This document shows positions 13,151-38,800 of a stretch of DNA of 40,865 nucleotides, in pieces. The position numbers and the translations under genes were made by a program. Under the pieces are notes generated by a model that saw nothing but the letters and a program-made list of their open reading frames with translations, had not been told where the DNA came from and did no database searches. The stretch lies in the UHGV virus genome UHGV-0180691, one strand, 5' to 3'. Each line of letters begins with the position of its first letter. Position 1 is the stretch's first letter. Source of the DNA: a virus.

Positions 13151-13171
13151 TTGTATGGAGCGCTGAGCATA

Positions 13172-13864
13172 ATGAATTTACAAGAACTGGAATATACGCG
13201 GATTGAACTGCGCCGCGCGCTGGCGGATTTATCAGGATCGACAAAAGGACAGCTGCAGGCGTTCAGTGAGCATCCACCAGCAGATAAGAATAAATACCCT
13301 CGGCACCATCCTGAAATCGTCATGGAGGGTGGGGAAGGTTGTGGATCGAAGGTTGTAAAAACTCTGGCCACTCCGCTTTATGTTCTTGAGACAAGGAGCC
13401 GTCGCCGACCTTTACCGCCTATTAAGGATACGGAGTTCGCTTGTTCAGCATGGCGTCGATCGGTCAATGGTCTGGGGGCGCATTTGCAGGCATGGGTGCG
13501 GTACTGCTATGGGCATGACCTTGCTTTCCGGTACCAGAGGTTAATGTGCCAGCACGTATGGGAAGAGTTTCAGCGTCAGCATAGCGGCAAAAAAATCCAA
13601 GACCGTGTCACTAAAAAACTGGTAGGGCTTGTCTGGCTGGCGGCGCAAGAAGTTGCTGCCTCGCGTAATAACGATACCTATCAGGAGTATGCTGGAGCAG
13701 CTCTGGCGCGCATGGTCAGCGTTGAGCGTTCCACCTGGCTCAGAGTGTATTCAGGCCACTGGGCAGCTTTCAAAGCGTCGTTTTCGGAGATGGACAGCCA
13801 GGCACTAAGCGAAATTTTGACACGGTACGAAGAGTACCAAGAACTGAAAGTGGCGGAAATGTGA
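13172..13864 (+). CDS. putative late-gene antiterminator (Q-like)
   Basis: ATG at 13172 with GGAG upstream; immediately upstream of a strong intrinsic terminator and the lysis cassette, the canonical Q position; sequence family not verified. Confidence 0.5.
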   Translation: MNLQELEYTRIELRRALADLSGSTKGQLQAFSEHPPADKNKYPRHHPEIVMEGGEGCGSKVVKTLATPLYVLETRSRRRPLPPIKDTEFACSAWRRSVNGLGAHLQAWVRYCYGHDLAFRYQRLMCQHVWEEFQRQHSGKKIQDRVTKKLVGLVWLAAQEVAASRNNDTYQEYAGAALARMVSVERSTWLRVYSGHWAAFKASFSEMDSQALSEILTRYEEYQELKVAEM

Positions 13865-14550: not shown

Positions 14551-15603
14551 ATGAAAAATACTGTAAATATAAACAGTGTTGAGCTTATCAACGCTGACTG
14601 CCTGCAATACCTAGCAACCCTCCCAGATAACACCATCGACCTTATTGTTACGGATCCGCCTTATTTTAAGGTGAAGCCGAACGGCTGGGATAATCAGTGG
14701 AACGGTGACGCCGACTATCTTCGCTGGCTTGATATGTGTCTTGCCCAGTTCTGGCGAGTGCTTAAGCCTGCCGGCAGCCTGTATTTGTTTTCAGGTCACC
14801 GACTTGCATCCGATATTGAGATCATGATGCGTGAACGCTTCAACGTCATGAACCACATTATCTGGGCGAAGCCATCAGGGCGCTGGAACGGGTGTAATAA
14901 AGAAAGCCTGCGCTCTTACTTTCCCGCGACGGAACGCATCCTTTTCGCTGAGCATTATCAGGGGCCATATAAGCCGAAAAGCGACGGGTTTGCTGAGAAA
15001 AGCAACGAGGTCAAACAGCACGTCATGGCTCCGTTAATCACCTACTTTCGGGATGCACGAGCCGAACTGGGGGTCACGTCCAGGCAAATAGCTGACGCCA
15101 CCGGAAAGAAAAATATGGTGTCTCACTGGTTCGGTGCCAGTCAGTGGCAACTACCGAACGAGCAGGATTACGAAAAGCTGCAGGAATTGTTCACTCAGAT
15201 CGCCATTGAGAAGCACCGCGCCTCAGAACTCAAAGCACCGCATCACCAGCTGGTGGCCACATGGCATTCGTTGAACCGGAAATACCTTGATCTGCTGGAA
15301 GAGTACAAATCTCTTCGGCGGCATTTCTCTGTGACAGTAGCCGTGCCCTATACAGACGTCTGGACACATAAACCCGTCCAGTTCTATCCAGGCAAACACC
15401 CGTGCGAAAAGCCCGCTGATATGTTGCGGCAAATCATCAACGCCAGCAGCAGGCCCGGCGATGTGGTAGCTGATTTCTTTATGGGCTCGGGATCAACTGT
15501 TAAAGCAGCCATTGAACTGGGCCGCCAGGCTATCGGCGTAGAACTGGAAGAGGAACGTTTCAACCAGACGGTAAGTGAGGTGAGGCAGCTGGCAGGGGAA
15601 TAA
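14551..15603 (+). CDS. DNA methyltransferase, N6-adenine/N4-cytosine class (beta-type, DPPY motif)
   Basis: 350 aa; VTDPPYF (motif IV) near N-terminus and FFMGSGST (motif I, AdoMet binding) near C-terminus, the order typical of beta-class amino-methyltransferases. Confidence 0.8.
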   Translation: MKNTVNINSVELINADCLQYLATLPDNTIDLIVTDPPYFKVKPNGWDNQWNGDADYLRWLDMCLAQFWRVLKPAGSLYLFSGHRLASDIEIMMRERFNVMNHIIWAKPSGRWNGCNKESLRSYFPATERILFAEHYQGPYKPKSDGFAEKSNEVKQHVMAPLITYFRDARAELGVTSRQIADATGKKNMVSHWFGASQWQLPNEQDYEKLQELFTQIAIEKHRASELKAPHHQLVATWHSLNRKYLDLLEEYKSLRRHFSVTVAVPYTDVWTHKPVQFYPGKHPCEKPADMLRQIINASSRPGDVVADFFMGSGSTVKAAIELGRQAIGVELEEERFNQTVSEVRQLAGE

Positions 15604-15673
15604 AAGCTTGGGTCGCTATCGCGGCCCTTTTTATTACCTCAACTGGACACCCGCAACGTAGCGAGGTGAGAGC

Positions 15674-15889
15674 ATGTATCGAATGGAAAAAATCACGACG
15701 GGTATTGCATACGGCGCATCGGGAGGGGGGACCGGATACTGGTTGCTTCAGCTCCTCGATAAAGTCTCCCCATCTCAATGGGCGGCCATTGGTGTGCTCG
15801 GTAGCCTCATGTTTGGTTTGCTGACGTGGTTAACGAGTCTGTACTTCCAAATTAAAGCGGATCGCCGCAAAGCTGCGCGGGGTGAATGA
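15674..15889 (+). CDS. S: class II holin / pinholin (phage 21 S-like), dual-start motif
   Basis: 71 aa, two predicted TM helices, C-terminal RRKAARGE; Met1-x-Arg-Met4 dual start; strong resemblance to phage 21 S pinholin as I recall it. Confidence 0.85.
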
Positions 15890-16425
15890 TGTCGAACAAA
15901 GCAAAGCTCAGCGCAGCAGTGCTGGCGCTAATCGCGTCAGGGGCATCTGCTCCACTCATTTTCGACCAATTCATCAGCGAGAAAGAAGGCAATGCGCTGG
16001 TGGCCGTTGTTGATCCGGGTGGGGTCTGGTCTTTATGTCACGGCGTGACCGTTATCGATGGCAGGCGTGTTGTTAAGGGCATGACAGCCACAGAGGAACA
16101 ATGCCGCAAGGTTAACGCTATTGAACGTGATAAGGCATTAGCCTGGGTGGATCGCAATATCAAAGTGCCTCTGACAGAGCCGCAGAAGGTAGGCATCGCA
16201 TCTTTTTGCCCGTACAACATCGGGCCGGGTAAATGCTTCCCGTCCACGTTCTATAAGCGCATCAATGCTGGTGACCGGAAAGGGGCATGTGAAGCTATTC
16301 GCTGGTGGATTAAAGATGGCGGCCGTGATTGCCGACTAACCAAAGGCCAAAAGAATGGCTGCTATGGGCAGGTCGAGCGGCGCGATCAAGAAAGTGCGCT
16401 GGCGTGCTGGGGGCTGGACCAATGA
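15886..16425 (+). CDS. R: SAR endolysin (T4-lysozyme-like muramidase with N-terminal signal-anchor-release domain)
   Basis: 179 aa; Gly/Ala-rich weakly hydrophobic N-terminus ([19 protein letters not shown]); E...D...T catalytic spacing ([22 protein letters not shown]); overlaps holin stop. Confidence 0.85.
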
Positions 16426-16940
16426 AAATTAATGCAGGTCTTATCGGCGTTATCGTTATTGCTGGCCTTTCGGTCGCTCTCGTTAAGAGTTGCTCAAACG
16501 CCAGTAGCCTGCAGAGCGATAACGACGTTCTGCGAAGTGACAACTCTTTGCAGGGGCAGGTGATCGCTACCCAGGCATTCAACTTTAATCGGTTCTATCA
16601 GGTAGCCGAACATGCCAACAGGCTTAACGCCCTGATAGACACCAGCACCGAAGAAACCGTAATCGAATACCGGGAGATTCTCCGCCGTGAAAAAACCTGT
16701 GATCTGCCTGTTCCTGCTGACATTGCTGGTGGGCTGCTCGAATACGCGTACCGTTTACGTGCCAGCGCCATGCACACCGATACCAACAGACCTGACGCAG
16801 CCGATGATCGTGCCGCTGCCGCCAGCTCAATGACGTACTGCCAGGCTGTTTTGTGGATAAAGCCTCTACTGGCCGTGATTGAGAAGGGCAACAATAATTT
16901 CGCTGGCATAAGGCAGATCGAGCAGGAAAGAAAGAACTAG
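16422..16940 (+). CDS. Rz: i-spanin (Rz-like)
   Basis: ATG at 16422 overlapping endolysin stop; N-terminal TM segment; coiled-coil-rich periplasmic region; contains an embedded lipoprotein ORF in another frame. Confidence 0.7.
   Translation: MKINAGLIGVIVIAGLSVALVKSCSNASSLQSDNDVLRSDNSLQGQVIATQAFNFNRFYQVAEHANRLNALIDTSTEETVIEYREILRREKTCDLPVPADIAGGLLEYAYRLRASAMHTDTNRPDAADDRAAAASSMTYCQAVLWIKPLLAVIEKGNNNFAGIRQIEQERKN
16688..16834 (+). CDS. Rz1: o-spanin (Rz1-like outer-membrane lipoprotein) embedded within Rz in an alternative frame
   Basis: Hand translation from GTG 16688: MKKPVICLFLLTLLVGCSNTRTVYVPAPCTPIPTDLTQPMIVPLPPAQ; lipobox LVGC; proline-rich mature region; GGGAGA about 10 nt upstream; below the 60-aa cutoff of the ORF track. 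Confidence 0.6.
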
Positions 16941-17354: not shown

Positions 17355-17852
17355 TTAATCACACTCTTGCCGTTGCCGATCTAGAGTGTTAAGTGCCTTC
17401 ATGTAAGCGCTATACGCTCCCTTAAATGTTTGTCCAGCCTGCTCAATTGCCGACTCTTGTAATTCTTGATTATTACCAGCGCTGTCTGCGAGATAAAAGG
17501 CCTTAAGAACGTTCGCCGCAACTAAACCCAGCTCAGGAGGGGCGTAGGTCATTACTTCTGTAGCGCTTTGAACTACGGGTAACATATCTTTTCTCAGGTC
17601 GCCTCTGGTCATTGGGTTGGTCAATGCAGGAGAAAAGCCAAACGAAGTAACTGAAACCATAAATTGATTATATTTTTCTCTCAATAGTGACTCCTGCTTA
17701 TCTAAACGAATAATGCAGGCTGTTTTGGAGGCATTGTGAGTTTGTAAATAGTTTCCATACAATCCCAAAAGCGCAGTAATGCTTACACCAAGTAAGGTAC
17801 AGATTACGGGAAAAATGACATTAAACTGGTTTATCCGTGGGCGACTGCTCAT
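17355..17852 (-). CDS. hypothetical single-pass membrane protein; AT-rich insert between lysis and packaging modules
   Basis: ATG at 17852 preceded by AAGGAG with 8-nt spacer; N-terminal hydrophobic helix (FNVIFPVICTLLGVSITALLGLYG); antisense to the late operon; own downstream terminator; AT-rich by eye. Confidence 0.55.
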   Translation of the reverse strand: MSSRPRINQFNVIFPVICTLLGVSITALLGLYGNYLQTHNASKTACIIRLDKQESLLREKYNQFMVSVTSFGFSPALTNPMTRGDLRKDMLPVVQSATEVMTYAPPELGLVAANVLKAFYLADSAGNNQELQESAIEQAGQTFKGAYSAYMKALNTLDRQRQECD

Positions 17853-18263
17853 GACCAAAGCTCCTTAGTTAACAACTTAATTTTCACTAATTAGTAAGTC
17901 CATATTTGCTTGCCATGATTTTAACATCAAGCTCCAGAACGTGGTTGGTAATCATTTTTAGAGTCTCTTTACTTCCAGATTTGACCGTTTTTGTTAATTA
18001 ATTTCCAGCTGGAGAAATGAGGCTAACCGCCTCGATCAGCAAGGGACCGGCAATACTGGTGTCAAAGCATACACGAGAATGAATCTCATAAGTAAAAGGT
18101 ACTCCTGGCGATTATAAACACCGAGGGGGCGAGGACACGCGGAAAAAGCCAAATTTTTGCATTTTTATCGGCCATCACCACCACTTCAATTCATTGAAAC
18201 ATCGGGATAAAAATTTTTCCGGTGTCGATTCTGTTTGTTTTTTGTTCATCACTGGAGCCATTC

Positions 18264-36894: not shown

Positions 36895-37074
36895 ATAGTT
36901 AGCCTCAAGCCTTTACCAGGCGGGCTTTATGTTGCTGCTGGCTCCTGTTATTGCACTCTTTTTAAAATTTACAAACGCAATAATTCTAAAGCCAAGAGAA
37001 ACTTAGAAACGAAACGGTGAAGCTTTGAACAGTCACGATAGGGCCTGTATCTTGCGGACAATTACAAATAAAAC

Positions 37075-37094
37075 TACTGTATATAAAAACAGTG
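37075..37094. promoter_or_regulatory. LexA binding site (SOS box) in umuDC promoter
   Basis: TACTGTATATAAAAACAGTG = CTGT-N8-ACAG consensus, 16 nt upstream of umuD start codon. Confidence 0.85.
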
Positions 37095-37109
37095 TTTGAG
37101 GTGTGTGCA

Positions 37110-37529
37110 ATGGAATTCATCAGGCCAACAGAACTGCGAGAAATTATCGCTCTCCCGCTTTTCAGTGACTTAGTTCAGTGTGGTTTCCCAAGTCCTGCAG
37201 CTGATTACGTTGAACAGCGTATCGATCTCAATGAGTTACTTGTCGCTCACCCGAGTTCAACGTATTTCGTCAAAGCCGCGGGTGATTCTATGATCGAAGC
37301 CGGGATCAGCGACGGTGATCTTCTGGTGGTGGACAGCTCCAGGACTGCTGAGCATGGTGATATTGTCATCGCTGCGGTGGAAGGGGAGTTCACTGTTAAA
37401 CGCCTTCAGCTGCGCCCGACCGTGCAACTCAATCCTATGAACAGCGCCTATAGTCCGATTGTTGTGGGCAGCGAAGACACGCTGGACGTTTTCGGCGTCG
37501 TGACTTTCATCGTTAAATCTGCGAGCTGA
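37110..37529 (+). CDS. umuD: UmuD, error-prone polymerase V accessory subunit (S24 autopeptidase)
   Basis: 139 aa; near-identical stretches to E. coli UmuD as I recall it ([44 protein letters not shown]); LexA box upstream. Confidence 0.85.
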
Positions 37530-37531
37530 AT

Positions 37532-38800
37532 ATGTTTGCGCTCTGTGATGTGAATTCGTTCTACGCATCATGCGAGACGGTGTTTCGGCCAGATTTGAAA
37601 GGGCGGCCAGTGGTTGTTCTTTCGAATAATGATGGCTGTGTAATAGCACGAAGCGCCGAGGCCAAAGCCGCTGGAATTACTATGGGAGAGCCGTTCTTTA
37701 AGCAAAAGGAGCTTTTCCGGCGCGCTGGCGTTGTCTGCTTCAGCAGCAACTATGAGCTGTATGCTGATATGTCGAACCGGGTAATGACGACGCTTGAGGA
37801 AATGAGCCCCCGCGTTGAAATTTACAGTATCGATGAAGCTTTTTGTGACCTGACGGGCGTTAGGAACTGCCGGGACCTGACTGACTTTGGCAAAGAGATC
37901 CGCGCTACAGTTCTGAAGCGAACGCACTTGACTGTCGGGGTTGGCATTGCCCAGACAAAGACATTGGCGAAGCTTGCCAATCACGCAGCGAAGAAATGGC
38001 AGCGCCAGACCGGCGGGGTAGTGGACCTGTCGAACATTGACCGTCAGCGGCGGTTACTGGCTATTGTACCTGTGGAGGATGTATGGGGTGTCGGCAGACG
38101 CATTAGCAAAAAGCTGAACGCCATGGGCATCAAAACAGCTCTGGACCTCTCAGAACAAAGCACCTGGATTATCCGTAAACACTTTAACGTTGTACTCGAG
38201 CGAACTGTCCGGGAACTGCGCGGTGAACCATGTCTGGAGCTTGAAGAGTTTGCGCCGGCAAAGCAGGAAATCGTGTGCAGCAGGTCTTTTGGTGAACGCG
38301 TCACCGAATACGAACAGATGCGGCAAGCTATTTGCAGCTATGCGGCGCGTGGTGCCGAAAAGCTTCGGGGCGAGCATCAGTATTGCCGCTTTATCTCTGC
38401 CTTCGTGAAAACCTCTCCATTCGCGCTTAATGAGCCGTATTACGGTAATAGCGCTTCAATGAAGCTTCTCATACCTACACAGGATTCCCGCGACATTATC
38501 AACGCCGCAGTAAAGTGCCTGGACAAAATCTGGAAGGATGGTCACCGGTACCAGAAGGCAGGAATCATGCTTGGGGATTTTTTCAGCCAGGGTGTGGCCC
38601 AACTTAACTTGTTCGACGATAACGCCCCGCGGGCCGGCAGCGAAAGGTTGATGGAGGTGCTTGATCACTTGAACGACAAAGATGGAAAAGGCACCCTGTA
38701 CTTCGCGGGGCAGGGCATTCAGCAGCAGTGGCAGATGAAACGAGAAATGTTGTCGCCGCGATATACGACGAGATATTCAGATCTGCTAAGAGTCCGATAA
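37532..38800 (+). CDS. umuC: UmuC, Y-family DNA polymerase V catalytic subunit
   Basis: 422 aa; N-terminal [15 protein letters not shown] and SIDEAF motifs of Y-family polymerases; immediately downstream of umuD. Confidence 0.9.

Follow-up and report, generated by a model that had tools for sequence, protein, structure and literature searches.

In the manual spanin catalogue of Kongari et al. (2018; PMC6139136), the phages HK225, ZF40 and mEp237 constitute one embedded inner-membrane spanin (i-spanin) family with a matching outer-membrane spanin (o-spanin) family, apart from the Lambda i- and o-spanin families in which phage 21 is placed. The mEp237 o-spanin is recorded in SpaninDB with the Shine-Dalgarno (SD) string tcgaataccgGGAGattctccgcc, the sequence MKKPVICLFLLTLLVGCSNTRTVYVPAQCTPIPTDLTQPMIVPLPPAQ and the comment 'found it emb in Rz'; it is a protein of 48 amino acids (aa), its lipobox is LLVG, and its mature peptide of 32 aa contains a single periplasmic Cys. 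The entry for the embedded o-spanin of HK225 agrees with it in length (48 aa), start and SD string (PMC6139136). For the o-spanins of the mEp237/HK225 family a beta content of 28% is predicted, and their 32-aa mature domain is among the shortest catalogued (PMC6139136). Here we report on a prophage within a viral DNA stretch of 40,865 nucleotides (nt) (UHGV virus genome UHGV-0180691; hereafter the window is the whole of this stretch), in which an open reading frame (ORF) at positions 16687 to 16833 of the + strand, as judged by sequence comparison, very probably encodes the o-spanin (Rz1 equivalent) of a two-component spanin, with the product of the enclosing gene, Rz, as its i-spanin partner.

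The Rz1 ORF starts with GTG and has 48 codons followed by a TGA stop, both in the ORF listing and by direct translation, and it lies wholly inside the Rz coding sequence (CDS; 16422-16940, + strand), in the +1 frame, where it spans 0.51-0.79 of the Rz length. An earlier note on this DNA, written without database searches, had proposed an o-spanin ORF in an alternative frame inside Rz. Translation bears out the embedding and exactly reproduces the 48-aa peptide given there (MKKPVICLFLLTLLVGC and onwards); the start codon, however, is GTG and not ATG, and the coordinates 16688-16834 were one base too far to the right, the ORF being 16687-16833 including the TGA. The product reads MKKPVICLFLLTLLVGC up to the predicted cleavage site before Cys17 and SNTRTVYVPAPCTPIPTDLTQPMIVPLPPAQ after it or, with the initiator written out, fMet-KKPVICLFLLTLLVG and CSNTRTVYVPAPCTPIPTDLTQPMIVPLPPAQ. 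Because an in-frame TAA lies 8 codons upstream of the GTG with no ATG, GTG or TTG in between, and because the only internal alternative, a GTG at codon 5, would cost the protein its Lys-Lys n-region, the start at 16687 is unambiguous in the window. An SD-like GGGAG is found at 16672-16676 (+), 10 nt upstream of the GTG, and the 24 nt preceding the ORF, tcgaataccgGGAGattctccgcc, are the string given in SpaninDB as the SD region of the mEp237 o-spanin.

For the comparative analysis, 135 loci with relatives of Rz were collected from annotated phage and Escherichia coli records, from GTDB species genomes (Enterobacter, Scandinavium, Kluyvera, Citrobacter, Kosakonia, Trabulsiella, Phytobacter, Pantoea, Brenneria and others) and from IMG/VR contigs. 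Of the Rz sequences, 119 were distinct and full-length, with protein identities as low as 42%, and it is to these homologues that the counts below refer unless loci are named. The 18 nt checked before the Rz1 start were the same as in the window in 59 homologues, most of the others differing by 1 nt.

The Rz1 product is identical to the mEp237 o-spanin at 47 of 48 positions; the sole change is P28 in the window for Q28 in mEp237, and P28 is present in 34 of the 119 homologues. Over the full length, identity amounts to 98% with mEp237, 92% with HK225 and 54% with ZF40, and 31 of the 32 residues of the mature domain are shared with mEp237 and likewise with HK225. By the rule of Kongari et al. 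(at least 40% identity over at least 40% of the periplasmic domain), Rz1 falls in the o-spanin family of HK225, ZF40 and mEp237, and the same rule places Rz, which is about 89% identical to the i-spanin of mEp237 and 78% to that of HK225 (tblastn), in the corresponding i-spanin family. PHROGs was the only library to recognize both proteins, compared with Pfam and NCBIfam: Rz1 matched phrog_456 'Rz-like spanin' (E 1.9e-6, residues 2-44) and Rz matched phrog_214, with the same description (E 1.9e-57). Moreover, the homologous ORF of 147 nt in Escherichia phage LLS is annotated as gene 56, 'o-Spanin outer membrane lysis protein' (PQ299149.1).

The features of the peptide are those expected of an outer-membrane lipoprotein. 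The signal peptide (aa 1-16; 16687-16734, +) consists of an fMet-KK n-region and an ICLFLLTLLV h-region, and the lipobox L14-V15-G16-C17 (16726-16737, +) ends in Cys17, with which the mature protein is predicted to begin and which would carry the lipid; charged n-region, hydrophobic core and lipobox Cys together make up the type-II (lipoprotein) signal of an o-spanin. Positions 2 and 3 are K or R in all homologues, L8, L10 and L14 are invariant, and within the lipobox G16 and C17 are found in 119 of 119, position 15 being V, A or T. The earlier note had read a lipobox LVGC and a proline-rich mature peptide: the former is present on re-translation and passes a PS51257-style rule, and the latter (32 aa; 16735-16830, +) holds 8 Pro (25%) and a conserved C-terminal motif P-L-P-P. 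According to the E. coli Lol sorting rule, Asp at position +2 of a lipoprotein causes retention in the inner membrane, and lipoproteins are otherwise sorted to the outer membrane. Residue +2 of Rz1 is Ser18, and among the homologues this position is Ser in 115, Thr in 4 and never Asp, so no inner-membrane retention signal is present. The sole periplasmic Cys of Rz1, Cys29 (16771-16773, +), is invariant (119/119) and is predicted, by analogy with C29 of lambda Rz1 (PMC6139136), to be the site of a homodimer disulfide. Two-component spanins have at least one periplasmic Cys in the i- or the o-spanin for homotypic intermolecular disulfides (PMC6139136), and here Rz1 C29, Rz C93 and Rz C140 are all invariant.

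The enclosing gene has the properties of an i-spanin gene. Rz (172 aa) carries a predicted N-terminal transmembrane segment at about aa 5-22 (16434-16487, +), with a Kyte-Doolittle maximum of 2.43 for the 19-residue window at residue 3, so that the Rz1 ORF sits, as expected for an embedded o-spanin, inside a gene for a predicted type-II inner-membrane protein with an N-terminal transmembrane domain (TMD) and a periplasmic domain. No Pfam, NCBIfam or PDB sequence match was obtained for Rz (PDB search to E≤1). A single-sequence AlphaFold2 model of Rz, of low confidence (pLDDT 52.8) and too weak to rely on, has a helix at residues 5-25 and suggests that the protein is largely helical, interrupted around residues 118-138.

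The same peptide features could be those of a genuine small lipoprotein with a role other than lysis, such as Cor-like superinfection exclusion or entry exclusion. Weak matches to phrog_1119 'Cor superinfection exclusion protein' (E 0.035) and to the NCBIfam EexN lipoprotein (E 0.21) point that way, but both are non-significant and essentially restricted to the signal peptide (residues 1-20 and 2-23, respectively), and the best match remains the spanin family phrog_456 (1.9e-6). The obligatory embedding in an i-spanin gene in all homologues, the place in the lysis cassette, the short proline-rich mature domain and the conserved Cys, on the other hand, agree with the definition of an o-spanin. 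We consider a non-spanin role very improbable and rejected a Cor-like or Eex-like lipoprotein as a candidate, given that the matches were confined to the signal peptide.

Taken alone, an ORF with a lipobox would be weak evidence for a gene, not beyond chance, because short ORFs in alternative frames are abundant (44 ORFs of at least 20 aa in the 2.8 kb around Rz1 in the ORF listing) and because the lipobox rule, an in-house one modelled on PROSITE PS51257, discriminates poorly. It was passed by 11 of the 1644 start/ORF combinations in the window, belonging to 8 distinct ORFs, and the pattern was therefore dropped as a stand-alone statistic; among the ORFs that passed it, Rz1 is the only one with a true Leu/Phe-rich hydrophobic core. 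These numbers, together with the facts that gene callers and the annotation pipeline PGAP leave the ORF uncalled and that the peptide is found in only 4 clusters of a protein database of 5.8 billion clusters, are what could be said for a chance open frame that resembles a lipoprotein signal and from which no protein is made. The scarcity in the protein database, however, reflects gene calling more than biology, since gene callers are biased against embedded genes, and tblastn found Rz1 in every intact homologous locus examined.

The comparative data argue overwhelmingly that the Rz1 ORF lies beyond chance. Along Rz codons 88-136, the +1 frame has no internal stop in any homologue, and at codon 137 a stop is found in 119 of 119; outside the overlap the same frame is interrupted at more than 50 positions, and inside it the +2 frame is closed in nearly all homologues. 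Five residues of Rz1 are invariant (Gly16, Cys17, Cys29, Pro43 and Pro45), among them the Gly-Cys of the lipobox and the periplasmic Cys. The start codon is GTG in 112 homologues, ATG in 2, CTG in 4 and GGG in 1, and in the five with CTG or GGG in-frame starts are available upstream. Among the loci, only three (labelled L044, L049 and L055) are without an intact Rz1, and in each of them Rz itself is truncated or disrupted. With a frame kept open to the same stop throughout and codon-position variability that tracks the Rz1 frame, a chance origin of the ORF is hardly credible.

The variability of the codon positions also identifies the frame that is conserved. In the codon alignment of the 119 sequences, the entropy at Rz third positions is 0.29 within the overlap and 1.155 outside it (Mann-Whitney p = 6.3e-18). 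The freest position in the overlap is Rz position 1, which is position 3 of Rz1 (entropy 0.63 versus 0.22 and 0.29 for the other two), and the codon periodicity in the overlap is thus that of the Rz1 frame. Compared with the window, Rz1 has a mean identity of 0.895 and the overlapped Rz segment one of 0.787, and in Brenneria Rz1 is 71% identical where Rz is 42% identical overall. The Ala/Asp-rich stretch of Rz at about aa 119-137 is poorly conserved, and it overlies the conserved C-terminal half of Rz1. For lambda Rz/Rz1 the same complementary constraint between the frames was shown genetically (PMC5295617). We conclude from the alignment that the embedded Rz1 frame is under strong, frame-specific purifying selection across the homologues.

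These figures leave next to no credence for the view that a constrained Rz segment, or an RNA or DNA element, accounts for the conservation of the overlap and that the open +1 frame is its by-product: the first half of the overlap (Rz REKTCDLPVPADIAGGLLEYAYRLR) is indeed highly conserved in the Rz protein too, which could explain part of the low nucleotide variability, but in the second half Rz is poorly conserved (column conservation 0.3-0.8) and yet Rz third positions are constrained and Rz1 is conserved, the suppression of synonymous third positions and the higher identity of Rz1 cannot be accounted for by constraint on the Rz protein, and an RNA element would produce neither a period-3 relaxation at Rz1 third positions nor an invariant stop codon.

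The o-spanin identity proposed in the earlier note is supported by the signal features, the frame-specific selection, the 47/48 match to the predicted o-spanin of mEp237 and the annotation in phage LLS. Several observations weigh against assigning this role to Rz1. The GTG start and the SD spacing of 10 nt are suboptimal, and the lipobox was judged by our own PROSITE-like rule and not by SignalP or LipoP. In Pfam, Rz1 obtained a generic lipoprotein-site match and a LysC match (PF23793) of 14.7 bits (E 0.03), under the gathering threshold of 27 bits, and in NCBIfam nothing significant. No homology to lambda Rz or Rz1 could be detected past the signal peptide: BLASTP of Rz against lambda Rz gave E 0.079, and the alignment to lambda Rz1 that the earlier note had proposed as a check comes down to 22 signal-peptide residues, 8 of 22 identical (residues 3-23; pairwise E 0.002). 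Furthermore, the i-spanins of mEp237 and HK225 are without coiled coils in Pepcoil, and essentially all spanin experiments have been done on lambda, to which Kongari et al. add a test with T4 (PMC6139136); we infer the lysis role of the HK225-type spanin family by analogy with these systems.

If Rz1 acts as an o-spanin, lysis could proceed as follows. Late transcripts driven by the Q antiterminator would be translated in both frames, according to the lambda paradigm, and pre-Rz1 would be exported by Sec. Lgt would add diacylglycerol to Cys17, signal peptidase II (LspA) would cut before this residue and Lnt would N-acylate it; Lol would then carry Rz1 to the inner leaflet of the outer membrane, since it has Ser instead of Asp at +2. 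The mature protein may form a homodimer through a Cys29-Cys29 disulfide and bind, with its C-terminal part, the C-terminal periplasmic domain of Rz, itself presumably anchored in the inner membrane by the N-terminal TMD and dimerized via Cys93 and/or Cys140. The resulting complexes would bridge the periplasm, confined by the peptidoglycan meshwork, until the S21-type pinholin triggers and depolarizes the membrane, the signal-arrest-release (SAR) endolysin is released and the murein is degraded; the freed spanin complexes would then fuse the inner and outer membranes as the final step of lysis. The coiled-coil step of the lambda scheme may not transfer to this family, because Pepcoil predicts no coiled coils in the i-spanin homologues.

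The genes preceding Rz form the rest of a lysis cassette. A phage-21-type pinholin/antiholin gene at 15674-15889 (+) has a dual start, with Met1 at 15674 and Met4 at 15683 (N-terminus MYRMEK); its product matches PF04971 'Bacteriophage P21 holin S' (E 3e-31; 107.6 bits against a cutoff of 26) and is by this match and the dual-start motif a class II holin of the S21 family, for which phage LLS annotates both products, anti-pinholin and pinholin. It is followed at 15886-16425 (+) by the gene of a SAR-type endolysin of 179 aa with a glycoside hydrolase 24 lysozyme fold (PF00959, E 4e-21), for which PGAP takes an alternative start at 15889. The best PDB match of the endolysin is 3hde_A (E 2.9e-16), in an alignment that takes in the N-terminal segment; the table entry reads 'Lysozyme' only, and we take the structure to be that of the phage 21 endolysin. 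Residues 8-26 are 53% Ala/Gly/Ser, and a Glu-x8-Asp-x5-Ser/Thr motif is aligned with 3hde, so that the enzyme is SAR-like by sequence features only. The order is holin, endolysin and Rz, with overlapping stop and start codons (ATGA), the Rz ATG overlapping the endolysin stop; such a lysis cassette is the usual, though not an obligatory, setting of spanins. A Q antiterminator gene (13151-13864) and a DNA methyltransferase gene lie upstream, and terminase genes lie downstream; together the genes make up a lysis cassette of the standard lambdoid late-operon kind, and the prophage that carries it has a contractile tail. With pinholin, SAR endolysin, i-spanin and o-spanin all predicted, the cassette is complete, and the prophage is thus probably competent for lysis.

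The cassette had been described in the earlier note as being of the phage 21 type. The description holds for the architecture, the pinholin (PF04971, dual start) and the SAR-type endolysin (3hde alignment), but not for the Rz/Rz1 pair, which belongs to a separate spanin family. Judged by these assignments, the lysis cassette is mosaic, only holin and endolysin being phage-21-like, because phage 21 belongs to the Lambda spanin families and mEp237, HK225 and ZF40 to a separate one. The HK225-family Rz/Rz1 module stands beside an S21-type holin in 55 of the 135 loci and beside other holins elsewhere (e.g., in mEp237 and HK225), and DNA homology between the window and mEp237 starts in the middle of the endolysin gene, with a breakpoint at about 16057.

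The earlier note described the Rz1 ORF as absent from its ORF list, which is plausible because other annotations lack it too. It is omitted from the RefSeq records of mEp237 and HK225, from ZF40 and from E. coli chromosomes annotated by PGAP, which names the i-spanin 'hypothetical protein'; in the catalogue of Kongari et al., 196 of 528 o-spanins were entirely unannotated (PMC6139136). The HK225-type spanin pair is systematically unannotated in Enterobacteriaceae genomes because it is invisible to Pfam and NCBIfam. Rz1 itself is already known from SpaninDB and from the GenBank record of phage LLS, and since near-identical o-spanins are catalogued for mEp237 and HK225, what we describe fills a gap in annotation and is no discovery. 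Its practical value is that a missing CDS is added and that Pfam, NCBIfam and PGAP are found to be without a model for the HK225-type pair, and the frame-specific selection provides a compact comparative demonstration that the catalogued HK225-type o-spanin is a real coding gene. The understanding of phage lysis is unchanged by it.

Among the tblastn homologues of Rz1 were ORFs in the Stenotrophomonas phages BUCT708 and BUCT709 (OM816834 and OM816835) and in Elizabethkingia phage EKP1 (OM284015), with 81% and 65% identity, respectively. Stenotrophomonas and Elizabethkingia (Bacteroidota) are unexpected hosts for a spanin of the enterobacterial type, and host misassignment or contamination could be the cause. 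In Serratia phage vB_SspS_OS31 (locus L138), a 'lipoprotein Rz1 precursor' of 108 codons is annotated at 512-835 of the locus, but it is only near position 689 that the conserved signal peptide and lipobox begin; the gene has probably been given a start too far upstream, in line with the 'o-spanin wrong start' class of errors of Kongari et al.

Some features around the cassette and towards the ends of the window deserve mention. The methyltransferase gene stops at 15603 and the holin gene starts at 15674; in the gap, at 15610-15627 (+), lies a terminator-like GC-rich hairpin followed by a T-run, through which Q-modified polymerase presumably reads. Past the Rz stop and ahead of the small terminase gene, in the position occupied by bor in lambda, is an ORF of 167 aa at 17355-17858 (-) with an N-terminal hydrophobic segment, accompanied by a terminator-like hairpin at 17083-17067 (-). 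It had no PHROG or Pfam match, was found in 1 of the 135 related loci (L057, 98% identical) and looks like a moron or cargo gene with its own terminator. Near the right end, a region at about 36960-38800 (+), with ORFs at 37092-37529 and 37532-38800, matches the umuD/umuC-like translesion polymerase V genes annotated in the phages PHB10 and vB_SosS_Oslo with 81-87% DNA identity and is probably prophage cargo. For the left flank (1-800), beside the integrase gene (720-1883, -), megablast against 5,426 complete E. coli genomes found nothing, the best matches of Rz are in Enterobacter species, and the structural module is only 78% identical to that of Citrobacter phage Chris1; the closest lysis cassettes are those of E. 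coli phages. The host is probably not E. coli.

Compared with the well-studied spanins, Rz1 resembles that of lambda and phage 21 in its embedding in the +1 frame of Rz, in the signal for signal peptidase II, in the short mature peptide and in the Cys at position 29 of the precursor, and mature lambda Rz1, with 10 Pro, has the same Pro content of 25% (PMC5295617). It differs from lambda Rz1 in a mature peptide of 32 instead of 40-41 aa, in the lack of a penta-proline run and in ending at 0.79 of the Rz length instead of about 0.87. No Pfam model of lambda-type Rz or Rz1 was matched at E≤1, and membership of the lambda/phage 21 Rz/Rz1 family was ruled out by BLASTP, Pfam and family placement. 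A weak likeness to the o-spanins of P2 (LysC) and SfV/Mu is seen at the lipobox and in the proximal mature region (tblastn to SfV Rz1 and Mulock, 58% over about 32 aa); these proteins, however, are of about 100 aa and are encoded by overlapped, not embedded, genes. With the unimolecular spanin T1 gp11, Rz1 would share an N-terminal lipoprotein signal and a role in disrupting the outer membrane, but gp11-type proteins have a C-terminal TMD in the same polypeptide, whereas the 48-aa Rz1 has none and the TMD is on the separate Rz. The short o-spanin, predicted to be beta-prone and not unstructured, the lack of predicted coiled coils in the i-spanin homologues and the fact that, unusually, the embedded gene is the more constrained frame led us to consider that the HK225-type pair breaches or fuses the envelope by a mechanism other than the lambda coiled-coil hairpin model, which we regard as unlikely.

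The closest systems are those of mEp237, HK225 and LLS. With the mEp237 and HK225 o-spanins, Rz1 shares the start at the same GTG position, the LLVG-C lipobox, the single periplasmic Cys and the place in Rz (0.51-0.80 of its length). Unlike these two phages, which have another holin, the window pairs the spanins with an S21-type holin, as do ZF40 and phage LLS. LLS was isolated as a free phage, with E. coli K-12 as host, whereas the window is a prophage; the two are 93% identical in DNA and 94% in Rz1, with few substitutions, and their cassettes are alike gene for gene: methylase, anti-pinholin/pinholin, SAR endolysin, i-spanin and embedded o-spanin.

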